Assembly: GCA_965649765.1 (NCBI GenBank)
Contig: OZ287756.1
Coordinates: forward strand, 30,566,001-30,630,000
Reading direction: 5' to 3'
From: Bispira polyomma
Taxonomy: Eukaryota
DNA: 64,000 nucleotides
The notes under the pieces were generated by a model. That model saw nothing but the letters and a program-made list of their open reading frames with translations. It did no database searches and was not told where the DNA came from. Shown here one piece after another: positions 39,111-58,100 of the stretch; the stretch's first letter is position 1, and the number at the start of each line of letters is the position of its first letter. A program made the position numbers and the translations under genes.

Positions 39111-42100
39111 AAAAGAAATAAAAGGTAGGTGTGTTTTCACAGGGTTCACACAACTTCGGTGGTTGTTACAAACATTTTTCTAACCAACACACTACTAGTA
39201 AGATTCATATATATATGCAATTAAGTGATACACAGTTAATCATTTCATAATTTTACTAACGCCAATATCTTTAACTAATTATTTGGAAATCGGTTTAGCA
39301 GCATTTATTCTTAATTTTGAGTGGCCTATAGGTCCATGATGCCAGCCGTGCATCTCTTTTGAACTTAAGGAGTTACTACTGTCACTCATATCTCAAAGAG
39401 TGCTAGTGCTATTTTCTTCAATTCCTGGTCGATAGTTTTCGGGGATTGAAAAGGTTAATGACGAGATTTTTAGATGTGATATTTCACTTTAACCCATACT
39501 TTAATTTGAACACCTCTGATAATTAAGCCCCATTCTGATCAGAAGATTGAAAATCAAAGGAAAGTAATTTTGCTTCTATTTCAAGCTATGGTTTAATCTA
39601 AGCAATTAGCAATTTTTATACACTCGTTTTCCCCCAGTATATAATGCAAGGCAGAAAGCACAAGTACACATCTCATTAAGATGCCTTACATTTGCTTCAG
39701 TAGATCTGTGGATGTGACCAGCATATTTACAGTAGTGCTCAGATGTTTAGTCAGTGTATACAATGTGTTGTCTCGTTGGATACAGTCTAATGGTATAGAA
39801 CACTCCTATATATTATGAGAATCCATAATTGTTTTTTTATTTGATGTCTGCAAGCTGGCTCCATGGGATGTTTCAGTTTATGTTTTCAAATCCCCCCTGT
39901 GTTCACTAGACAGACACCATATGCATTAAATGCAGCCAAAAACAAGAGTTGCCTTTTTGAAAAAGTCACAGGAGCACAGTATGAAATACACTAATGTTGA
40001 TATGGCCACTATATACTCAGGCAGGCTGTGTCTGATAACAATAAATCTAGCCCCCCTCAGTTTGCCCGGGTTGATTGTTTTCAACTAATCCATAAAGGCC
40101 TTACATATTTTTTGAGGTGGCGGTGCCCTTAATCAGGCCATGTCTGATAAAAATTCATAGCCATAAACTTTAAGAGAATGCCCTGCTCTTTCAGGCAGGT
40201 ACAACATCTTACATTAGAGGGCCGTGACAACCTCGATAACAGAGCTAAATGATCATCCCCAAGGATTTTCTGCCTTCAGTTAATTAGATGTGATTAAATG
40301 GTGTTAGTGGTATTTGAACAGTCCCCAAAGAAAATGCTAGCTATGTAACTTTGGGTCACACAAGTGATTATATACATATAAAATTAAAGGTATAAAGTGT
40401 TTCTATGTTACAAAACCTGCTGTTAGCATAAATGTCATACTATGTCATATATATGCTATGCACAGATTTTAAAATTCTACATTAAGTAGGAATGGTGATT
40501 TTATGTACATACAATTTCCAACACTTGCCCTCCTTGATTATCAATAACACTAGTTAATTATTTGATATGGTGTAGTAAAAAAATTATCCTTGTGCAGCGA
40601 TAAATCTACTTTGCCACCATGATCATTAATTATGAGTTTACATTTACTACAGACATATCCAAACAACTATTTCTCGCCCAGCAAATCATATGTTGCAGTG
40701 ACATATAGAAGTCCATAGGAACTAGAAATTCTCTATAATTTGTATTTTTGAAAAAAAGAACTGTTGTGTTACTTGATGTAGAAGGCAGATTCTTTTGCAG
40801 TAGGATATATTTGCGTCCTCTCACACTACAGTTGGGGTTTTGATTACAAGCCACAGTATGTATGTTAGAAAGTTTGGCAGCAGACTTGGTGAATGTCGAT
40901 GGTTTGTAAAGCAGGAAGTATTGACCCAACTACACTGTTACTGCTATCGTCCACCAATAAACTACTGGTTGCAATAGATAATGTAAATTTAAACAGTTTT
41001 TTAAAATATGTGACAAAAAGGCCAGTGTGTTTTTCTGATATATTACACAGGGCTCTATTAAGCTTTGATGATTGTTACACAGATCAGATTTCTTCAGGCA
41101 ATATCATACAATGCGAGAATTATATATGTATAGTGATACCCAGTCATTTTCTCATTATTCCACTGACATTAATATCTTAAATTAATCATTTGATCTTATG
41201 TTGGTGGAGATTATTCATCATTATGATTGGACTATAGATCCGTAATAAAAAATGTGGATCTCTTTTGATGTTGAAGAGTAACTTATACCATTCCTATTTC
41301 AGAGAGTGTTGTGATACTTTACAGGACAATGACTTATGACCACAAATTCTTTGAAATTGACACCTATTTGTTCTTTTGAGCTCATCAAAGATGAAACAAA
41401 ATCCACAGACATCATAGAAAATGAGCATGTTATATTTTCTCTTACTTATATTTATGTACAAAATTATAAACAACCTATTTGTTTACAATGAGGGACTTTC
41501 TGTTTCCTCGGTAAAACCTACCAACAGGGCTGGGTCTTAAGCTTAGTTAATTGATGCCGTCATATGATGAAAACTTTAAACATATCTCGTTAAACTTGTT
41601 TGCCAACCTTCATTCCCTCCCTGTACACCCCCCATTTTTCCTTATGACCTTGACTATGATTTGGACTTCTCTGTTGGTAAATGGATTCTGATGTTGTGTT
41701 TTATAAGAAGTGTTAAAACATAAAATATAAATTCAAAAATAGAGTAACAATTTCTGATGAAGAGTCAGTTATTTCGATTGCCACTGCTTAACAATAGAAA
41801 CTGGATCAGAATCAATAACGTTTAACTTATCAAAATACGTATCAAAATAGAATAGAATTATCAAACATACCAAAACATATCAAAATAAAATAGAATTGGC
41901 AAAAAACATGCGCAATGTCTTACAAAGATCGCCACTTGTTTTAACATTGTCATGTACTTTTCTTAATATTGTCTACCTGTGGTCTCATTGATGTCCCTTC
42001 TGTGTCTCCTGGGTGTAGTTCCACTTATGGAAGAGCAGAAGAAACCTTGATAACAGAGCTAACGGTCTTAGACAAGGTTCAACTTCTGTGCCACAACAAT

Positions 42101-43092
42101 TCTTTGAGGCAGCCATATAAGGACAATCACTTAATTATCTCTATTTTGACATTTAAATTCACCTCACTGTCATTTTTATGGTGTGTCATTGTCTTTGGGT
42201 GTCTTCTATTGTGTATAAACCAACATATGTAAGTGATAGTAAGCGACAAGCGGTAAACCTAAAAGAGACAACAAAGCGACAATGTTGTACCAAAATCACC
42301 ATGTGTCATACCGTTGTCCTGTCTTTGTCTCAATACTGTCTCATTGTGGTCTCATGGATGTCCCATCCGTGTCTCCTGGGTGTTGTCATACTGATTCAAC
42401 AATGGTGTTGGAAGGTCAATCGACTGCACAATGATCAATGGAGACAATCACCCAGAAGCCATTGCAACATTATGGTTTTGTTGCTATGTGGGACACCAGC
42501 TGTACACTAAACTAAATGACCCAAGGTGTTCTTGAAAACAGAGCTAATGGTCACAGTCAAGGTATTATGTCTTCACTTAATCGGCATGCGATTAAATGGT
42601 GTTAGTTGTGTTTGTAAAAAGCAAAAAGGTTGCTAGCAATATCACTTTTGGTCACATATGTGACAGTATAAATGCATTATAAGTATAAGGGTATAAAGTG
42701 TTTCTACTAACCTCTATGTTAAAACTGGTGTTTGTATATGTCATAACATGCCTTTTATGCTATGCAATAGTATTCTAAAGTTTTAAATTTACTTACTTGC
42801 GCTAAATTAATACTCAGTCTAATATGTAGCTCTTCCAGTAATCCCCTATAATTAAGTTCATCATTTAGTATGGTAGAGTACACAAATTATCCTTGTGGTG
42901 AAAGAAATTTAATTACTGCAAGTATTTGCCAGTCATTCTCATTATGGATGTATTTGCATGACCTGTTTGCTTTTAGCAACAAACGTGAGATATGTTTGGA
43001 TCATATTTCAAGAACATACAAGTCTGGGCAATTTCAATAATTTGTACTTCAGTATTACTTTTGTATTACTTGATGAACACGTGCATATACAC

Positions 43093-43095
<3 letters not shown>

Positions 43096-43133
<38 letters not shown>
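43096..43133. repeat. (TA)n microsatellite
   Basis: TA run. Confidence 0.95.
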
Positions 43134-43141
<8 letters not shown>

Positions 43142-44440
43142 CACTATGATAAAATAATAACTACACCAAATAATTGATATTCTCTGAGAAACACAACCAA
43201 ATATTCCACGGTATAACGCTTTGTTCACTCTCTCCATGTAAAGCTAACCATTGCAGCAGTTAATGTTTCCCCATAAAAGACCCTTTTCTGCAATGGCAGA
43301 TTCTTCGTCAGTACTTTATACCTTGGTGGTAAAGCAATCTTGCCTGCCACCTGTGTAATCCTCGGCCACAGCATGCGTGTGGTAAAAGCTAGCCGCCGCC
43401 TTGTTGACGGTAGATGGATTGCAGTCCACAAAACCTTAACCAATTATCCTGTTTTCTACTTTCTTGCACTAATGTACTGCCCATTTAAATATATTACAGA
43501 GTTCTGTATGACAGTTGCATTTAACTGAAAATTTATACTTTTTGACACACCTCCTTTCAAGTAACTTAACACAAAGATCTTCTCAAAACTTTAGATGAAT
43601 ATTGTCGACTGGATCATACTACAATACATATGAACCAGACGTACTTTTTGCAAATGTATGTTATTATATAAGGCATTATCCAAAGTGCAACAACAGAATC
43701 AGTTAACCAATAGAGAAGTCCAAAAACATAGCTAAGGTCATAAGGAAGGGTATGTGGGTGTACATGGAGGGAACTAAGTGGAGTAGGTGAGTTTAAAGGG
43801 ATTAGGTTTGATAGGGATAAGTTTTTCTATAACCAAAAAATGTTTCAAGTACTCTAAGCTTAATATGGAGACTACTGAATAACGTAGGGGGCAGCAATAG
43901 AGAAAGTTGTAGGTTCAGCCCTCTTGGTTGGTTTGACAGATATTAACAGCTTTGAAAGTAGTTACATGTATTTTAAACACAATACAATAATGAATGGGTA
44001 GCCAATGTAGTTTTTTTATGTATGGAGAGACATCAGTATGGATCCCCAGTCGAAAAATGACTTAACACAGATAGTTTGGAATATGTTATGAGGTTTTTTA
44101 AGTCAGTGTATAAAAATTGGTCACCAGAAGACTATGTGCTTACAATAATTTACAGAACTATTCTCCAAACAAATCCATTTCTTTGATTTCCCCAAAGGCC
44201 AAGTGTTTCTGGCTAAAAAGGCATTTGACTTCTTCACCATAGATGTAATGTGACAAGTCAGAGAACTTAGAGGGTTAATTATCATCTACTTGATTGAGTT
44301 GTTTAAACTTTGAGCCTCATTAGTTTGTGATTATTATTTAAACTATGGTGGTTATGTTTGTTGTCTCCGTTTGTTAGCAGGCTTACACGCAAATACTACT
44401 AAACCAATTTTGACCAAACTTTGTGCAAGGCTAGATCAAT

Positions 44441-44661
44441 GTGTCAAGCACGTCTACTTCAGGGGACTGCTATCTCAGTCCACGTTAATTATATCACTTG
44501 ACCTTAAAAAAAATTTAGGTATAGCTATCCTCAGTGCATTCTATCATAACTACAAGGGCCAATCAAATTCCTTAATTAATTAGCTATTCCCGGTTTTTCT
44601 GGGGCTACGCCTCCATATTGAAATTCGACATTGAAGAAATAACAACCAAAAATATTTTAAC
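44441..44661 (+). repeat. Split direct repeat A1 (copy A2 at 49581-49801)
   Basis: 221-bp near-identical repeat containing ccaatcaaattc, a CCAAT motif also kept in the 18-19 kb relative. Confidence 0.95.
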
Positions 44662-44771
44662 TTCCATGGAGAGTTATATGAACTTGGTTTTTAGTTTATG
44701 GTTTTAAAAGTTATATTTTAGCCTGTTTTATACTATAAGGAAGGTGCTATTGGATTTGTGTGAAAATTGAA

Positions 44772-45990
44772 ATGGGTAGAACTAAAAAGACTCCCGTTCA
44801 GCCAAAGAAACCAGCGAGCCATAAAACAAAGGTGTCAAAACCTACCACTGGGACAGATGAACTACAGGTAACTAACAATATTGTTCGCAATCTTCATAGT
44901 CACCTTAATGAAGTAGAGGAACCTATAACTCGCCCGTCGAGTGCTGACTCATTCCAGGTAGATTCACAATTCATACACCCTCCGGCTACATCCCACGCAG
45001 GGGCTGATCCTCCCAACGAGATGTTGGCAATTCTAAGACGATTAGAGCCCAGGCTGGAGAAAGTAGAAGCAAAAACGGCCTCGGGCAGTAACTCGGGTAC
45101 CTGCACTAGTCAAACCACGAACAGTGCTTCTGTTCTCGGACGGGCCAGTAATATTGCTACCAGTTTACCACTGCCCAGATACACTCCCCCGTCAGACGTC
45201 GGGTTCAGGGACGGTCGGGGATTTCCGCAGCCACAACTGGGGCCTACACCACACAAGTATAACAGGGATGGAATTGTTCCCAACTTAGACACTCTACGCT
45301 CTATGCCTGATGTTCAGTCAGCAGTGACACGGCAGCTGGCTAGCTACGAATCTCTAGCTCAGAGAGAACTATCTCAAGGTAAGACCGCCCAGAGAGTTAA
45401 GTCTGGCAGATTTAATTCTACCGATGTTGCCACAGTCGACCTTAGGTATCGTTGGCCGAACGAGGGCTGCTTAGCAACCAACATCTCCACTTCTGCGCGC
45501 AAATGCCCTGCCTATGACGATCTGTCACACCCACAATGGGCAGCAGGCCAAATATCCAAGGCTCTGCTGGTTGCAGACAATACAGCAATGAGGGATATGA
45601 TGACCCAGATTGTTTTTGCATTGCGAGACGCTTCGTCGCTTCCATGGCCGGTAGTGAGGACCGCATGGGCCTCTAATATGCATGAAGTCGAGGAGGGGTG
45701 GTAACGTGGCAGGATCACACGCAATGGGCGCTGAATCGGATGAGTGCGTCCCAATTGGCCATGGTTAACAATCACCATCAAGGTACCTCTCAGACCAATG
45801 AACACAGGACAATATGTAAGCTCTTTAACAACGGTAAATGTAGTCACAAAAATGACCATGGAAACTACAAACATCAATGTTGGTACTGTTCCAAAGTCCT
45901 AGGAAAAGAATCTAACCACCCTGAATTTAAATGTTTCAAGGCAAATTCCAGCAAGCAATCTGATAACCAAAATGTAAAAAATAGTTTGGA
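44772..45990 (+). pseudogene. Gag-like ORF, frameshifted at ~45700
   Basis: Basic N-terminus, short coiled coil (LAILRRLEPRLEKVE), WP..YDDLS..QW core, C-terminal Cys/His finger CKLFNNGKC..H..H.C..C..H..C. End approximate. Confidence 0.8.
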
Positions 45991-46874
45991 ATTGTTGATT
46001 CGACAGCCAGTTAAGCAATATGGAACATTGAAAGATACTGTAAATACTGGAGTTAATGAGAACTATGAAAGTGCAAATATGGTTAATGACAAATATAGCC
46101 ATAGTAACAGAACTGAGGTATCATTTAGGGAAGCCAATGTAAGAGGAAATTATATTCATAAAACTAATGTCATGTCAAATGTATTATGTGAGAACATTTC
46201 AGGAAGCACGTATGGTGAGGTTGGAGCTGTCCAAAGTCAGCAGCAATTGCTTACACATACCAGGGGACAAGGAATGGTCAAGTTGACCACAGGGGAGTGT
46301 AGCTCGACCACCTGTGTACAAATAAAAGATTGTAAGAATAAAAATCATACAGTCCACATTCAGAGTGGCAGTCATGAATGGGGACCAATAAAGGTAAAAC
46401 TTAATGTAACCAATTGGTATTTATTTTGTTTGACCACATCAAAAAGCTTGCCAGTACTTTACATTGGGGGCCCTAAAAATTTTAAAAACGGCTTTTATTA
46501 CAGCCAGACTGATGAAGTGACAGGACAAGAAAGCTACACTCCCTTTGAATTTGAACCTAACGGTATGTTATCTGTTATTAATTCTTTTGAAATCTGGGTC
46601 AACAGAGTTAACGACCTGGCATATGTAAAATTTGATGAAATCACATGTAAGTCAGTGCAACAACAGAAACAAGCCAGTAATGCTTTCCACTACTACAAGA
46701 AAGATATGGAGTATTTAAAGTCTAGTGGTAAAAACTATACTGAGCATCTAGAAGATTTAATTGATAATTTAATTGGATGCTGTGAAGGTAAAAATACAGA
46801 TTATTACGTTACAAATGTAGTTGTGAGACAACTCGGTACAGACTGAAGATAGTAGTGTAAAACCTACTAAGAGC

Positions 46875-48677
46875 ATGGTAAGTTATTGCGATGGAAAATA
46901 TACTCACCCTGCGTCGTCCGAATTCTTCTCCCAAATGACATATATGCTTAAGGTTAGTGAACCTCTGAACAGAAGTATCACAGACATACATGACAAAAAT
47001 AAGACTGTAGGGTTCCTTGCTTTATCAGACACTGACTTCAAATTTCAAGGTCCAGATAGGCAACCAGTATATATTAGAACAGTAGAAGACATGATTGCAA
47101 TTGCACAAGTAATTAAGCAGACAGGAGTATCAAATTACAAACAAGCCAGAATACCATTGAGTTCTGGCTTAAATACACAAGCTTGGTAATATATGCTACA
47201 GGATGACAAGTTACTACTTCAACACATCACATTTGGTTTCCCTCTATGCTTAAGAACACCTGATAGGTTAGGCAATGTTAAGATCAAAAATCATTACTCT
47301 GCTTTGCAGTATCCCTATGAGGTGGGTGAATATCTTAAGAAAGAAAGTGATTTAGGTGCTATGTTAGGGCCAGTTAAGGAGGTTAAAACTCCAGACTACC
47401 ATTGTTCTCCACTTCTTACAAGACCCAAAGATACTGATAAACGTCGAGTGATTTTGAACCTGTCTCATCCGTATGGCGATTCGCTGAATGACAATGTTAA
47501 TAGGCATCAATTTGATGGTGTGGCATTCGCATTAAAGTTCCCCACAATTGATGATATAACACAAGCCATACGTGACACTGAGAACGCCACTTTATTCAAA
47601 ATTGACGTGGCCAGGGCGTTTAGGAATCTACGAGTTGACCCTGTGGATGCAATTAAGCTAGGAATCTCTTGGCAGGGCAAATATTACGTGGACCCTGCCC
47701 TGCGTTCGGGTGGGTTCATGGCAGCACTGCGTTTCAGCGTTGCACAGACGCAATAACGGCTCACATGTGTAAACAGGGCTTTAAAGTATTCGGATACATT
47801 GACGACTACGTTTGCGTTGCGCCAGAAGGAACAGCCAACGAGGGCTTCAACAAACTCTACACATTGCTTAAAAAGCTGGGTCTTCCAATGAACCAAGACA
47901 AATTGACTCCCCCTACTACTAAACTTACATGCCTTGGCATTGATTTTGACATCATTAAGGGCATTATAAGTATCCAACCAAAAAAGCTTAAGGAAGTGTG
48001 TGATGTTTGCGTAGAAGTCTTGCTCAAACAATATATATCTAAAAATAAGTTTCAATCACTTCTAGGAAAGCTTTTATACATTCACAAATGTGTGACACCT
48101 GCACGCATCTTCATTAATAGATTACTCGATGCTTTTAGAGCTGGGCATGCCAACAAGCGCTTTAAAGTTACTAATGAAATGAAATATGACCTGGAATGGT
48201 TTATAAAATTTTTAGAAAAATACAATGGTGTTAATTTTATTAATCAGATTAGTATACCATATGCAGACGAGCTGCATCTGGACGCTTGCCTCACAGGATT
48301 TGGGGGCGTTTGGAACCGAGAAGTATATGCCACCCCATTTCATGACTTATTCGATGGAAAATTAACAATTGTACATCTCGAGATGCTGAACATAGTGATT
48401 GCGCTACGCGTATGGGCAGAGAAGTGGAGACATGGTAGTCTTATGATCAACTGTGACAACATGGCTGTGGGTCTGGTTGTTGAATCACACAAAACCAGAG
48501 ATAGTTTCTTAGCATTGTGTTTGAGAAATATCTGGTTACTAATAGCTACTTATGATATTTCTTTACAAATTAGACATATACCTGGTAAGAAAAATGTTAT
48601 TGCAGATGCTCTGTCTAGACTATATTGAGTGGAAACAAATACCAATTGAATATTTCAACCTGGATTTGTCAATATAA
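46875..48677 (+). pseudogene. Reverse transcriptase-RNase H (internal stop at ~47187, frameshift at ~47700, deletion after ADALSRLY)
   Basis: SPLLTRPK, RRVILNLS, FKIDVARAFRNL, FGW..G, YIDD; RNase H motifs DACLTG, HLEMLN, CDN, NVIADALSR. The natural tail WKQIPIEYFNLDLSI* ends at 48677. Confidence 0.92.
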
Positions 48678-48682
48678 TTTCA

Positions 48683-49371
48683 GGTTTCACATACATCAGC
48701 CAAATCCTGATGTCTTCAGCCAGTGCTAGGATTGACTTAGTTTTGAGACCAAAGACAACGACAGCCTATAATGCTCAATTTAGAACTTTCTTAGCCTTCC
48801 TACAATTTACAGGTATTACAACTGTGAACGTACATGCAGTGATTGCATTCCTGGAATACCTGGTGCAAAACCGGTTATCTTTTGATCCAACAAGGCACTT
48901 TATTAGGCAGGATGTCATTTTTGGCCACCCAGGTGCCCACATGATTCTAAAATGGGCTAAGAATTTGCAAAATAGAACTGATACTCACATCATACAGATC
49001 CCAGTGCTAGATAATTCACACATCTGCCCAGTTATAGCTCTCAAGAAACTGCTTTTGTCTAGACAACTTTTGGACAAGGCACCACTGTTTGCTTCAAAAA
49101 CTACACCATATCACCCAATTATCGACTCACATGTAAGATCAGCTTTACAAACAGTTTTACAACATATTGGCATTTAATATAGCTCACATGGGTTTCATGC
49201 CTTTAGAAGGTCGGGGCCTCTTTTGTATTTAATAAGAACGTTTCTCTACAGAACATTATGGCCCATGGCCTTTGGAGGTCCTCAGCAGTGTGGACATATC
49301 TACAGAATACATCTCAGGCAGCATCAGTGGTCCCTTTGACTTTTGCCTCTGCCATCTCACACTCTACTTAG
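48683..49371 (+). pseudogene. Tyrosine recombinase, internally deleted and frameshifted
   Basis: N-terminal T..Y..F..FL..FLEYL, then LKWAK, CPV.AL, HAFRRSG (HxxR), HGLWRS and VWTYL (catalytic Tyr). The first catalytic Arg box is missing (jump at VQN-RLSFDPTRH); stop at 49175. Confidence 0.88.
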
Positions 49372-50757
49372 GTTTGGCTTGGGGCTTTAAAATTTGTCAT
49401 GTTTAAAAAATGTTAAGCATTATTTTATCTGTAACTTCATGTACATAGAATACTAACATGTAAAAATAAAACCTCAAAGTGAAATCTTTTATTACCTCTT
49501 ACTTTCAAACTTCAACATAACCATAACATGACCTTACTTGGATAACTTTGACCTTTATCTCAACTTTTCTAACGGGGACTGTGTCAAGCACGTCTACTTC
49601 AGGGGACTGCTATCTCAGTCCACGTTAATTATATCACTTGACCTTAAAAAAAATTTAGGTATAGCTATCCTCAGTGCATTCTGTCATAACTACAAGGGCC
49701 AATCAAATTCCTTAATTAATTAGCTATTCCCGGTTTTTCTGGGGCTACACCTCCATATTGAAATTCGACATTGAAGAAACAACAACCAAAAATATTTTAA
49801 CACCCACCACCTCCCCTAATACCACAGCTGGGGCTACGTTAACTAGAGGGCCAATTGGCACTCTTTTGGCATATTGGAAATGAATCCAAATACAATGGTT
49901 AAAGCTGTTCATGTTAAGTGTAATTACTAAAAGGAAACCAGTTTTATGTATTAATTGCTTAGGGAGTCATCTTGGCTTAATACAAAAAGGGTCACTGTAA
50001 TGCTCCTCTGGCTGTGTGGAATGAGGATTCTGCCTTCTTATACTTTCCTCTGAGTTCATGTCTAGGGTTCCAGAGTAGAATAGAAGCTCTAAGAGGTTTA
50101 ACTCTCGTCTGCTAGGCGATTCGGTGTCCAAAGCCAGGGGGTTGCTTAATGCAGCTGTTTTGATCGACTAAGTCAAAGAATTTAAATTGAGGCATGGTTT
50201 CTGATATTAAAAAGAAAAAGAAAAAAAAACAACAAACTTTTGACAATCTATGTTCGTATAAAGTCAGTTAAGTAAACTGTGGAAAAATGGAAAGTTCTGT
50301 CATATAATTGATTGGGACATATGTGTATAACCTTGTTATAAATTACAAACGTGTGACTGGAACCAGCAGAGTTAAGGGTTTCATTATAGAGACATTTATG
50401 GCCTAATTATAGGCACTAAATGGTATAACATGAGACCTGGTAAATGTAACCAAAACCACCGTTTGTGGGTGGTTTATGATCTATAGGGAGCTGCTACCCC
50501 AAAAGTATTGTTATCACACATAGCACTTTGTTCAATTGATAAAGAGAATTATTGATATTTTAGTATGTAACGTTTTGTTATGATATATATATTTTACATC
50601 ATTGTCAGAATTATATTGATGTACATAATGAGGTGTTGATGCAAGTTATTTGCTAAAACTTTATTATTTATAATAATATGCTCTTTTAAGATGCTATGGT
50701 TTATTATGGCTAGTCCTGTTTTGGCTAGTCCTTTTTATGATTGTTATGGAGGCCTGA

Positions 50758-50959
50758 TTGGGGCTTTAAAATTTGTCATGTTTAAAAAATTTTAAGCATT
50801 ATTTTATCTGTAACTTCATGTACATAGAATACTAACATGTAAAAATAAAACCTCAAAGTGAAATCTTTTATTACCTCTTACTTTCAAACTTCAACATAAC
50901 CATAACATGACCTTACTTGGATAACTTTGACCTTTATCTCAACTTTTCTAACGGGGACT
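50758..50959 (+). repeat. Split direct repeat B2 (copy B1 at 49379-49580)
   Basis: 202-bp repeat, one mismatch. Confidence 0.95.
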
Positions 50960-53416
50960 GTGTACTTCATTGACTGTGACCTCACTTATGTCTAAAAAAA
51001 CACTTGGTAATTGGTAATTAGTATTTTAGCCAAGTAGGTTCACCTCCCCGATCACGAATTGTCAAAATGTTGCACTTAAAAAGATGCCTGGCATCAATTT
51101 GGCACATAAAAATTATTTTATATCAAGTACTTGTTGATATGTTTAGAAGGTTATATGTCTGTAGCTACATCACAGACACTTTTCCGTTTTGTTACCCATG
51201 GTGAAAATTTGCTTCCGCTAAGTGAGTTTTCAGCGTTTTAATTGTTTTTAATTATTGGACTAATTTGCAAGTATATATTTCAGTATATTAAGTATACGCT
51301 AACAAGCCTTACATGTCAATTTCAATATATACATACCTGTTTATAAGTGACTGCTGTTATTTTATCTGTTCAAACAGACTGTTCAAACAGACTTATGAAG
51401 AAAAAAGAAAATATGCTTAATATAGAGTACTTTTTCATGTATGATGTCAACTACTAAATACTACCAGTCAATGATATTTTCATCTATAATTACAAACCCT
51501 ATGTCCCCTAACGGACCCAATGTCAGTGCACAATATGGTTTTAAATTAATTACACAGTATCAGAAAATCCCCCAATTGTACCCCATAATACACTAGAATT
51601 AGGCCACCAAAAAAATTGAAGAAATTTGGACGTGAAGGCAACCATTGTTAATGGCGGTAAATAATCCCTGCCCTCTTTAATGATGAGGATATTGACACAA
51701 ATTGAATCAGCCACTTGTGGAGAATATAGAAATGGGTTAAAGTACAGTATCAAAACAGTATGTCACTGTAATTAGAGGAAATTGAATTCAACACACAAAC
51801 ATTTAATGGAAGAGAAACTGTTTGTCAGAGATATTGTATTAGATGTAGATATCAGTAGTGTGACCTCTGTAAATATTCTACCCATCTCGAAGTCACTGCC
51901 CCGCAAGGCATGACTCGTCAGTCACTAAATTTTATCCCTTTACAGTAAGTTATTGCTAGGGTCAGTGTTTACTGTGGTAACCAATGAGAAGAGATATAAG
52001 GTGAATTGTTTGGCGCCCTTTCTCACAAACGGCTTCAAGACAGTACTAGAAAGCAGCAAATATAATTATTTTCATGTGTCTTTAATTCCAGCACTAACTG
52101 TCTTTGATTACTTTTTTAAAAATATAAGTCATAAATATTTAACATTACAGCATATAGTTAAGTACACTTTTCGTCCCCTAAAGTTTGTTAATAAATGTAT
52201 TAGAAGAATGAATATTTAAACTGTTGAATATTATGATAGTGAAAACAAAATGAATCACTGGCCTCTCACCAATGTGGGTTCGAATCCTGTTTATTCTTCC
52301 ATTGGGGATGGTTTGTCGGGTACTTGCCATAGAGCGCTGGTTTACAGTGTTTCAGCAATGGTTCCCTTCACCATTAAATATAACCATTTTTACATGATCT
52401 ACGCTGTTGAAAGTAATGAAAACCCCAACTAAACCACACAAAATCTTTACCCATCCATTCAATTTAAATTTTTCTGAAGCCCTAGCTTTTATTTATATCA
52501 GACACAGCCTCATATTGTTTTTACTCTAAAAGGGCCATGTTGGAAAGTGCCGCCATGTTAAAAATAATATTTAAGGCCTTTTATGGATTGGTTGGATGTA
52601 ATCAACCTGGCCAGACTGAGACTAACAGATTAATATTTTTCACACTTATCACACTGTCCACTTTTTAAAAAGACAACTCTTGTTGTTCTTAGCTCTCTCT
52701 TGTAGAAGGGATAGCTACCAAATAGTTCTGCTCAAAACTCTACCAATAAATAGATTTTTTTTACGTCGTAAGTACAGTTACATGGGGGCACCACTTAGTA
52801 CTGGATAAAACATGTAATCACTTTACTTAATATTTGTTTTCTGTTAAAAAGCATAGCAAGAACATAAAAAGGTTCAATGGATCACTTTTCTGTTCCTTTG
52901 AAATACTGGTTATCAAAAGTATTTCTGTGAGTACCTCTGCAGCTACAAAACTATCATCACTTACTTGCCAAAGATGAAATGAATATAAATTGTGAAATGT
53001 GGCAAAACTATGACCTTGCCCTAAAGGAATATATTGTTTAAAAGAGTGTCGTGTGAATTAAAGTGAACTAAATATAGTAGTTTGAGATCCAGGTCAAATA
53101 CAATTGCTGGTCTGCTGGGAACTTCTTAATTTTCGGTAACATAACACTTGTACAAAGGTAATAGAAAACATCAAGTACAAAATCGGGAGCCTTACATGTA
53201 GTAAATTAGAAAGCGGAGACCCCAGGTGGTTGTAGCTTAGTGGTAGGTATCAAGTTACTTTGATAAAAGTAATGAGCTGTGTGAAGTGGTTTGAATGTAT
53301 CTTATATCTTACATCCATACTGCTACAGTAATCTATTCGAATGTTAGTCACTGTGTTCAGGATTTATTCATAAGTTATTTATTCATAATTAGTTTACCGT
53401 GTATTTATTTTTGAAA

Positions 53417-53655
53417 ATGTGTTATTTTAATATAACCTAATTTGTACTGATGAATATGTGTGAACATGTGTTATTTTAATATAACCTAATTTGTACTGAT
53501 GAATATGTGTGAACATGTGTTATTTTAATATAACCTAATTTGTACTGATGAATATGTGTGAACATGTGTTATTTTAATATAACCTAATTTGTACTGATGA
53601 ATATGTGTGAACATGTGTTATTTTAATACAACCTAATTTGTACTGATGAATATGT
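53417..53655. repeat. 49-bp tandem repeat x ~4.9
   Basis: Unit atgtgttattttaatataacctaatttgtactgatgaatatgtgtgaac, near-identical copies; absent from C copy 2. Confidence 0.95.
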
Positions 53656-53954
53656 CTGCAATTTGAGCGAAGGTCGAACCACTGTGATCAGAGGACAGAA
53701 CTTCGGAACACACAATTGCCTACTGGATTGGAATTTAGTTGGCTTTTACGTTGCCTTCAAAAGTTTATGTTATATCACAACGGCCAAATTCAATGGTGGA
53801 AGAAACCAGTGCTAAAACAACGTAAACCACGGACCTATGGCAAGTATACCCGACAAACTTTCTCACAAGAAACAACAACCGTCTTCTAAATATGAATTGC
53901 TATCAGCTTTGTCTCATAAAAATATTTTTAAAAGATATAAATACCAAAAAAGTG

Positions 53955-54180: not shown

Positions 54181-54771
54181 GACTACTCCTGGACAACCCC
54201 AATAATATACGGAATTGTCTCACAGCAGTAATATCAATCTGTCTCATTGCAAAAGTTACTGCAATAACATTGGGTCCTTTATACCCTATTGACGTGGATT
54301 AATTTCTAAGGTCGGCGGGTTGATTCTATATTAACTAAACTATTGAGTTTTTTGCCTATAATACCCCCAAAAATGCACAACTAACACAACAATCAGTGAA
54401 TTGCACTAAATAGATTTATTATAGTGTAGTTTAAATCTCTGTATATTGGATAGTCAAGCCAGGAATTATGTTTGTATTGATGCTCCTGCTATGAAATACC
54501 AAAATAATATTTCATTAAATTAATTAGTTTTGGATGACACAAAATTATTTCCTAATCTGTTTACTTAGGTGACTTCTATGTTATTAACATCAACAATGAG
54601 GCTATATTTCATATTTACAGTAACCATAGAAAAAACTATTAAATATAGCTCATTATTGATTAGCACTGTGCTTGTACTATAAATGATTAAAGCAAATTAA
54701 AAAAATTACAAAACATAAAACTTTAATGGCAGGATGGGGTTTATACCAAGAAAGAAACCACTGAATCTTGG

Positions 54772-55144
54772 GAGCAGATCCCGTTAGAGAGAGCAGATCC
54801 CATTAGAGAAAGCAGATCTAGTTAGAGAGAGCAGATCCAGTTAGAGAGAGTAGATCCTGTTAGAGAGAGCAGATTCAGTTAGACATAGTGGATCCAGTTA
54901 GACATAGCGGATGCAGTTAGAGAGCGCAGATCCAGTTAGAGAGAGTAGATCCAGTAAGAGAGAGCGGATTCAGTTAGAGAGAGTAGATCCAGTACTAGAG
55001 AGCGGATTCAGTTAGAGAGAGTAGATCCAGTAAGAGAGAGCGGATCCAGTCATAGAGAGTAGATCCAGTAAGAGAGAGCGGATCCAGTTAGAGAGAGTAG
55101 ATCCACTTGGAGAGAGCAGATCCAGTTAGAGAGAGCGGATCCAG
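54772..55144. repeat. 20-bp minisatellite (gagagYRgatccagttagag) x ~18 within a HINE-like element
   Basis: Tandem units visible, followed by ccttggtaaaggcatgtgcgccct 3' end. The paralog at ~60655 has a single degenerate unit. Confidence 0.9.
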
Positions 55145-58100
55145 ATTTATATTTTTAAAATTTTTGGAACTGTGTCACCTTGGTAAAGGCATGTGCGCCC
55201 TTCCATATTATTTAAGTAATACTTGATTTAAATTTAAATTTTATTCCTACAAACAATCACATTCCAGAATTTTTAGCAGCTAACAAACTTCACCCTACTC
55301 CCACAGCAAGAAATATCGCGAGGCCTTGAAAAGGCTAACACAAATCACAGTGTGATGAAGTAGTGAGGAGCAGTAATTACTTCTGGGTCTATTAAAAGTA
55401 AAGCTACTTACCTTAAACAACAGAACAAAAACAAGGTTGTTAAAAATAGCCCATTCTATTACATTTCTATTTTTAGACGAGACATTTTAAACTTAACAAC
55501 CTATTTTCAATGGTTTTCTGCTAGCAAAACGGGTGTCAACAAACTCAGATCAAAATTACTGAAAATTTATAGCTGGGTTTCTAGCAGTTAATGAGTACAG
55601 GAAGGATGCTGTTTATACTGCTGGTCAGTTTAAAGACTGCGACAAGGCCTATTTCAACACACATCTAATATTTACCTTAAAGTTATCATTCATCCTAACA
55701 TCTAGTCTCCTGTTGCAGTGAAAACAAACCCTTACATGTGATGTTTGGAATTCTGGGAATAAATATATATAAACTATATTTATATAATTTTTCTGTTACC
55801 CTTCCCCAGAAACACAAACTTAATTACTTTTGAACAGTAACAGGTAAACAATGTATTTTAAACATATATTAGTTGATGACTTCATCAATCCCTTGATTTG
55901 TATAAATATGTAAATAAGCACAGATCTGTACATTGGGATATAGAAATTGTCTGAGAAATAGTTAGCTGTTTGAAAGATGTCTCCTAAAAATGCTGTGACA
56001 TTGTTATAGCTTTCTTTTGAAATTTTTTAATAAATCAATACTCATTATGCATACACCTCAATACTTAAAAATACAGATGCCACTTCCAGCAATATATGGA
56101 TACAATAAGGAAAGTGATGATGTTTTTTAATTCATTAAATTACAACACATGGAATATGGATTCTCTTTAGCAATTATTAGTAGTTGTTTTATTTTTGTAT
56201 GTGTAAGTAGGTCATTTACCTATCATAGCTCTGTATGTGTGTGGGAAGGTTGATCTTCATTATTCGTTTTTACATATGTGTGCTTAATATTAATAGTAAC
56301 TTTGCAAACTTCTAACTTCATGTCTATCAATACAATGTTACTGTTATTCGGAATGCTTGCATAGAGATTTGTTTGATGTATGTGTGCACTGAGTTACTTT
56401 CAATTATAATTTGCCACCTCGTTATGAAAGTAGACCTCCAAACCTTGTATTTTACACAAAGTTTCGCAAACTTTGGATGACACTTTAACTCACCTCTGTT
56501 TATCCTCATCTTCACACACTTCCGTTTCATTTTAGTAAATCTCACATTTACCTCTGATGGTTGATAAACACCATTTCTTGCATATATCACGTTTGACCTT
56601 CATTTTGTGATCACATCTTCTGACCTATCACCCCTTATTGTTTGAACCTTCTAGCATATATCACCTTTGACCTTTATTTGCTCACCTTCTACCCCTTTTC
56701 GAACTGTGTGGGAATGTTGACAGACTTATTAAAGGTTGGTGAGCTAAACTTTGAGCAACTACCCTATTATGTTCCTGCACCGGTGAATGATATGTCATGA
56801 TATGATACAAACACGCTGACAACAACATTACACCCGAACTGCTGGACTAATCAAATTTCTATTTCTCTCATTTGTCTTCCTTTATATGGTATGCACAGCA
56901 CTAATGAACCATTTCTTAATTTCCAAAGTACTAATAACTAACAGCAGTAACTGACACACCCCTAACTGGAGATAGTTGTGGATGACTATTCAATGAAGGG
57001 CAGTGGTGTGGAGAACAAAAAAACTGCCTATTGCAATGTAGTGCACGGTTCTTGAAAGCCATGTCCAACCCAAAACTAAACTCTATTCTCCATTTAAACT
57101 TCGCATTTTGGCCAGTACATATTTTGAAGTAAAATTATGTCAATTCCATATTTCTTTTATTTTGTAAGCATTGGGTACTAGTTTTAAAAACACTTGATTT
57201 GACCATTCTTGAGAGCTTAAGTTAGTGTAGCATTGAGAAATTCTCCAGAAAACACATACACAAATAACAGTCACTTCAGAGGGATGACCCCTCGCCATTT
57301 CTATTTTCCATATGGTAAAGATGATACACCTATAACTTTGAGATACATGCTTCTTTTAGTTTAGTGACATTCAAGGTAGAGCTACATGTAACTTTGCTTA
57401 GAACTGAACTGAACTGTTTCTAAGTGACTCCTGTAATGTTATCTCTTTAGATTGTTGACATATTGAAGGCCTATCAAGCACATGTGTTTAATTTTGCCAA
57501 ACACACTTAAAAACAAGTATATATACTTACTATAGAGTACTATTTCATATACAAGGTCAACTACAAAAGACCACAAGTCAATGATATTTTCATCTATATT
57601 TACAAACCCTATCCCCCGCACATTACCTAATGAACCCAATGTCAGAACACAAATATGGGTTTAAATTAATTACTCAATATCAGGAAGCCCCCCAATTGCA
57701 CCCCAAAACATGCTAGAATTAGGCCACAAATGAAGACTGAAGAAATCTGGATGTGAAGGCAAGTATTGTTGATGGCTGTAAATAATCTCTGCCTCCTTTA
57801 ATAATGAAAATATTGATATTAATTGAATCACCCACTTGTGGAGATTATAGAATTGGGTTAAAGTACAGTATCAAAAACATTATGTCACTGTGAGGAGGGA
57901 AAATTTATACAGAAACATTTAAAGGAAGGAAAGCTATTTGTCAGAGATAATTTATCAGATGTAGATATTTGTTGTGACATCTGTAAATATTCTACCCACA
58001 TGTACGTCCCTAATTCCAGCACTAGTGTCTTTGATTACTTGTAGGCAACATAAGTCATAAAAATTTAACATTTTACAACGTATTTTGAAGCACACTTTTC

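Follow-up and report, generated by a model that had tools for sequence, protein, structure and literature searches.

Introduction

In gammaretroviruses, Gag is translated from unspliced RNA, Pol is obtained when ribosomes read through an in-frame UAG that has G as the next base, and the 3' gene is expressed from a spliced subgenomic RNA. In alpharetroviruses, env is spliced from a donor that lies inside gag. A spliced subgenomic RNA also serves for Pol in foamy viruses, where Pol is synthesized free of Gag and has to be packaged by a route of its own (PMC7828637, in excerpt).

Ngaro elements (order DIRS) are described, in the sections available of PMC9210276, PMC3783388, PMC8547959, and PMC4157794, as having the repeat layout A1-ORFs-B1-A2-B2, the genes gag, RT/RH, and tyrosine recombinase (YR) on the same strand, no methyltransferase, and, in many families, a small overlap of pol and YR. 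In fungal Ngaro, YR occurs in or out of frame with RT-RH (PMC3783388, in excerpt). The distal recombinase of the DIRS order often lacks a start codon, and for Ngaro the published route to it is conjectural: a ribosomal frameshift by -1 where pol and YR overlap, which Poulter and Butler 2015 proposed and the available part of PMC13003380 quotes. The published Ngaro accounts, as far as these sections go, mention no intron or splice for YR, in contrast to the splice that is predicted here. No spliced Gag-YR RNA appears in the portions available of PMC9341512, PMC7192593, PMC9210276, PMC8547959, PMC12477816, PMC3783388, PMC6681497, PMC12440569, PMC2632668, PMC3266345, PMC4157794, 10.1101/2022.06.16.496473, PMC7828637, and PMC13003380, nor elsewhere in the literature searched, whose scope stopped short of the 2004 paper by Goodwin and Poulter, the 2015 one by Poulter and Butler, and the supplements. 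As an expression route, such an RNA is probably undescribed in print.

The Element Is a Decayed Ngaro-Type Retrotransposon

The retrotransposon that holds the predicted splice is 6.5 kb long and occupies positions 44440-50963 of the window, by which we mean the whole 64-kb stretch of DNA that was analysed. Its split direct repeats follow the Ngaro layout A1-ORFs-B1-A2-B2 (Table 1), and gag, RT/RNase H, and YR are arranged in this order on the same strand with little overlap. A methyltransferase domain after RNase H is absent, as two open pol frames (912 and 947 aa) gave only RT and RNase H family matches and both finish at RNase H. The YR catalytic residues R151, H268, R271, H291, W294, and Y302 are invariant in 28 sequences. 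Repeat layout, gene order, lack of a methyltransferase, and the small pol/YR overlap are thus common to the families of the window element and to Ngaro as published in the sections cited above. A DIRS1-like retrotransposon, with inverted terminal repeats and an internal complementary region, was ruled out by the direct terminal repeats, and a PAT-like one by the absence of a methyltransferase domain from pol. The window element is a decayed and otherwise ordinary Ngaro-type YR retrotransposon, an assignment made from layout, gene order, and domains, whereby the YR tree holds unnamed relatives only.

Table 1. Repeats, predicted splice signals, and coding parts of the element (positions refer to the window).
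Feature	Position	Strand	Remarks
Split direct repeat A1 (left end)	44440..44666	+	98% identity to A2
Predicted coding exon 1: first 202 codons of Gag and 1 nt more, with a basic N-terminus, a long helix, a low-complexity linker, and a second helix	44772..45378	+	helices from sister Gag model
Predicted 5' splice site AAG/GTAAGA, phase 1	45376..45384	+	cross-family conservation
Predicted GT-AG intron, 3,305 nt, contains Gag C-terminal half and entire pol	45379..48683	+	
Gag C-terminal half (helical core, CCCH-type finger)	45379..45988	+	frame broken near 45702
pol (RT, RNase H; no methyltransferase), broken	45989..48677	+	family stop TAA 48675-48677
pol stop, then predicted 3' splice site TTTCAG/G	48675..48685	+	cross-family conservation
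Predicted exon 2: tyrosine recombinase (Cre-like)	48684..49368	+	about 288 nt gone at 48879, more breaks
Repeat B1	49379..49584	+	100% identity to B2
Repeat A2	49580..49806	+	split direct partner of A1
Repeat B2 (right end)	50758..50963	+	partner of B1

Compared with three sisters, the window copy has 93-96% identity, and all three of its genes are broken. There are losses of 1 nt at 45702, 47699, and 49212, of 2 nt at 46825, and of 6 nt at 47203; in addition, 50 nt of pol are missing at 48624 and about 288 nt of YR at 48879. Therefore, neither a whole recombinase nor a fusion can come from this particular copy. The A2-B2 spacer of the window copy contains no hydrolase ORF, its longest frame being 66 codons. 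TGTGT is present at the left end (44440-44444), at the B1/A2 joint (49580-49584), and at the right end (50959-50963), a placement as expected of a recombination core without target duplication. In at least 16 of 39 near copies (L031, L033, L037, L038, L040, L041, L043-L047, L049, L050, L055, L056, and L058), A2 and B2 are absent and the copy stops at the first B repeat.

For comparison, 99 near copies were fetched from the host genome (1.04 Gb, 75 contigs) and sorted into 19 families with 62-83% nucleotide identity in YR, which are related by descent, so that counts of families are not independent trials. A more distant set consisted of 60 loci and 20 longer stretches of distant clades, whose YR is 31-64% identical to that of L083, and a metagenome set comprised nine loci. 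The YR tree, with 45 rows and none omitted, spans 22-100% identity to L083 and contains many well-supported clades.

Donor and Acceptor Are Conserved Across Families

The earlier note had proposed that an intron joins the Gag N-terminus in frame to YR. Its coordinates were reproduced on the donor side (ATG at 44772, exon end CAAG at 45378, intron start GTAAGA at 45379, phase 1) as well as on the acceptor side (TTTCAG ending at 48683, intron of 3,305 nt), and the frame after the acceptor is that of YR, so the two exon frames are compatible. Less straightforward was the designation of the TAA at 48675-48677 as the natural RNase H stop: by homology it is the pol stop, since the sister ORFs end there, but in the window copy, with its 50 nt missing at 48624, it lies out of the RNase H frame. 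The predicted intron measures 3,246-3,466 nt in 15 family representatives. GGTAAG occurs at 0.22 per kb on the plus strand of the window, so a single donor-like site means little, and it is the cross-family tests that carry the case.

The donor G/GTAAG was found in phase 1 in 85 of the 91 copies with the region mapped (99 fetched, 8 without the region) and in all 18 families that have the region. When each family is represented by one drawn copy, GGT encodes the donor glycine in 18/18 families, whereas the share of the top codon ranges from 0.32 to 0.80 at 33 other conserved Gly columns. Likewise, the following lysine is AAG in 18/18 families, compared to a count of 158 AAG among the 425 codons of 23 other Lys columns. 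The level of 0.95 is reached by just 2 of 127 fourfold and 2 of 198 twofold columns, one of each being supplied by the donor, which is the sole synonymous-invariant Gly or Lys site in gag. Since both codons are fixed unlike other Gly and Lys columns, protein constraint does not explain the donor. A KSGR-like motif is present in 28 of 30 Gag proteins of other organisms, 27 of which have Gly-Lys in front of it.

Among the distant elements, where the donor glycine was picked by eye, a phase-1 GTA is located at the same helix end in all 16 with the region (4 of 20 are without it), against a background of 113 in 1,158 Gly codons. The residue after this glycine varies (K/N/I/T), and in L299 serine replaces the glycine, yet a perfect GTAAGT is retained. 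In the metagenome set, L130 and L133 show a phase-1 donor G/GTAAT ahead of KSG, and L135 has the homologous glycine without a canonical donor.

On the other side of the predicted intron, a YAG is located exactly 21 codons upstream of the Arg-Pro of YR. It is present there in 86 of 97 mapped copies and, counted by family, in 18 of 19; the remaining family is represented by one copy with a deletion. The acceptor alternates between CAG and TAG, and the base at -4 is free. The 11 copies in which it is missing comprise five small indels that shift the motif, three point changes, and three deletions. A phase-1 YAG at -20 or -21 was found in all 57 anchored distant loci (3 of 60 are without anchor) and in 20/20 of the longer distant stretches. 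It stands at -21 in 26 of these 57 loci, six of which are family 4 again, and one codon later, after a conserved T-rich tract, in the other 31. Four of the nine metagenome loci have the same 20-codon acceptor spacing; the spacing is shorter in two, in another the acceptor follows the pol stop immediately, one locus is uncertain, and the last does not include the region.

In the near clade, the polypyrimidine tract is short, and a TTYRAY-like branch-point candidate lies about 26 nt upstream of the acceptor and is not invariant. One distant clade (L292-L295, L303-L307, and L312-L331) has a conserved CTATRC and a T-rich tract before the acceptor and outside of pol; this motif falls in different reading frames and so resembles a branch-point region. 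The GT-AG ends, the consensus donor, and the YAG acceptor under selection are hallmarks of a U2-type intron. The family comparison indicates that donor and acceptor are both under nucleotide-level selection, and the conservation of donor (18/18 families), acceptor (18/19), and phase (1 in every clade) among related Ngaro families, which the earlier note had named as a check, was confirmed.

Routes to the Recombinase

From this sequence comparison, we infer that the family would make YR from a spliced RNA in which the front half of Gag runs in frame into the complete recombinase, with a probability of about 0.85. For this claim of the earlier note, comparative support is strong, as sites and phase are kept in deep families and at synonymous positions, and there are cases without another route; the window copy itself, as stated above, is too broken to make the fusion. 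The unspliced RNA would give Gag and act as the template, and the host spliceosome would remove about 3.3 kb to yield a Gag(N)-YR message.

The pairing of the gag donor with the YR acceptor is suggested by their common phase. It might be that both signals are real and not partners of each other, whereby a different upstream exon is joined to the acceptor and the gag donor has another role, e.g., binding of U1 to protect the long RNA. Further GGTRAG sites, which are present in each element, would allow for such a pairing; however, none of them is common to nine representatives, whereas the gag donor is synonymous-invariant and, in every clade, has phase 1 in common with the acceptor. We regard this reading as improbable.

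Still less probable is a Pol-YR fusion by -1 ribosomal frameshifting where pol and YR briefly overlap. Most near families have such a -1 overlap, about 19 nt long, and 12 of 18 distant elements have the same relative frame, but 7 of these 18 lack an overlap, and each of the three relative frames is represented among them (single copies, some of them decayed). Furthermore, the pol stop of family 11 lies in the YR frame in 3/3 copies, slippery heptamers were found in just 2 of 13 correctly anchored families, with five mis-anchored rows and one blank set aside, and a frameshift leaves the invariant gag donor unexplained. In 7 of 17 near representatives, the first methionine of YR comes only at codon 80, close to the end of the SAM-like domain (residues 17-83). 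Taking together these representatives without a usable AUG and the distant elements without overlap, the published -1 frameshift cannot be general.

The least probable alternative is that YR is translated from its own AUG, by an internal transcript or by re-initiation after pol, and that the splice-like motifs have another role: an AUG at YR codon 10 is available in 10 of 17 near representatives and an in-frame AUG just upstream of the acceptor in six of nine elements of one distant clade, where independent initiation is possible, but a start at codon 80 in the other seven near representatives would drop the core-binding domain, the upstream AUGs of the distant clade fall in different registers of one nucleotide motif, and YAG and phase are kept regardless of an AUG.

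Predicted Gag-YR Product and Expression of Pol

Under the spliced Gag-YR reading, the fusion would carry the start codon, the basic N-terminus, and the helices of Gag, without its core and its zinc finger. When a sister Gag was modelled (mean pLDDT 60), the donor glycine (Gly257) followed a helix (233-255) and opened a low-confidence linker, and the helical core (283-387) and the finger lay beyond this linker. The YR model (pLDDT 87.5) has its first helix beginning at residue 4 after the acceptor and matches the Cre/Tre fold along its length (TM 0.67 over 320 columns). Since the donor stands at a helix end and three residues separate the acceptor from the first YR helix, the splice would respect domain borders. 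The likeliest purpose, at an even chance, is that the shared N-terminal helices tether the recombinase to the Gag assemblies that hold the cDNA, and the basic stretch of Gag may act as an import signal as well. The earlier note had put forward nuclear import or particle co-packaging by means of Gag's basic N-terminus and coiled coil as possible purposes, and helices are indeed present in the sister Gag model. Structure comparison of the Gag fold gave no clear match, and modelling of the Gag helix 72-122 as two copies gave a score of 0.11.

Regarding Pol, gag ends with TAG followed by G and pol continues in frame in the 16 families mapped, with an open pol of 912-947 codons in those copies where damage is least. 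At 45986-45988, where the sisters carry the TAG, the window copy reads TTG. A CARYYA motif, which resembles the plant-virus read-through signal, is located at +13 after the gag stop in 10 of 14 representatives, and no stable RNA fold was detected after the stop in the 14 representatives (z -0.4 to 2.0). L130, L132, and L133 have an in-frame TGA in place of the gag TAG. Pol is likely to arise when ribosomes read through the one in-frame UAG that closes gag. Splicing of Pol from the same gag donor was also considered, as a phase-1 YAG is found six to eight codons after the gag stop in many families; since it is missing in families 5, 12, and 14, read-through is preferred. In a distant clade, gag and pol are connected by overlap or a single frame instead. 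The N-terminal 300 residues of pol (L083:2715-3600 and relatives) form a moderately conserved block with a VTNW motif, then predicted strands and helices, and have no Pfam match.

Search for Spliced or Intron-Less Copies

Among the 15 of 24 joints that were listed, none was the 45378-to-48684 joint, whereby the three sequencing runs cover element and flank like DNA. Four junction-type patterns were searched. The first gave three matches against four for the control, none on an element, and 64 of 91 copy types would have matched it. The second gave 142 matches against 134, and in the 30 fetched of the 100 listed, the element matches were unspliced. A further pattern had 30 matches, of which 20 were fetched and all were unspliced, and another had 9 against 15 for the control. 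No intron-less genomic copy was found among 39 block maps, 91 copies with mapped donor, or 60 short loci, and the shortest gag-to-YR gap in 71 pairs (from 150 + 150 matches) was 2,283 nt. A dearth of intron-less copies would be expected if RT prefers its own RNA or if packaging needs intron sequence. Fused Gag-YR proteins were absent from the 120 listed of 160 protein matches and from 150 representatives, sequences that are apparently plain ORF calls, and the viral-contig collection (viral_contigs) yielded no relative.

Comparison With Retroviral Expression Strategies

The scheme proposed here has the same parts as those of gamma- and alpharetroviruses, namely an unspliced RNA for Gag, read-through of UAG-G, and a spliced 3' gene. 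In contrast to these viruses, the 3' gene is the integration enzyme and the Gag part amounts to 200-280 residues rather than a few codons, and, unlike gammaretroviruses, the Ngaro families have no stable fold after the gag stop. With foamy viruses, the proposed scheme shares a retroelement enzyme gene expressed from a spliced subgenomic RNA, whereas in the Ngaro families only the recombinase would come from the spliced RNA, with the N-terminal half of Gag retained (compared with the excerpt of PMC7828637).

Whether Ngaro broadly use such a three-way scheme, with unspliced Gag, Gag-Pol by read-through (or, for certain clades, frameshift), and a Gag(N)-recombinase that comes from spliced RNA and is delivered to the particle by the Gag helices, seems to us balanced. 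If so, the frameshift model would give way to it throughout the superfamily, and annotated Ngaro YR proteins would lack their true N-terminal half. The working recombinase would be a Gag fusion, which changes how these proteins are annotated and assayed, and control of integration would sit under host splicing. The signals name the exact junction, so that one RT-PCR or RNA-seq search in any species with such elements can check it.

Other Features of the Locus and Its Relatives

Eight near-identical gag matches, about 29-34 kb apart, lie at G000:C3:15669726-15880219 and suggest a tandem segmental duplication. Within the window, tandem arrays are located at 53357-53658 (49-nt period) and 54715-55220 (19-nt period). 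Repeat pairs, some direct and some inverted, are dispersed over 40288-43780 with distances of about 2.3 kb between partners, and are probably remnants of old DNA transposons.
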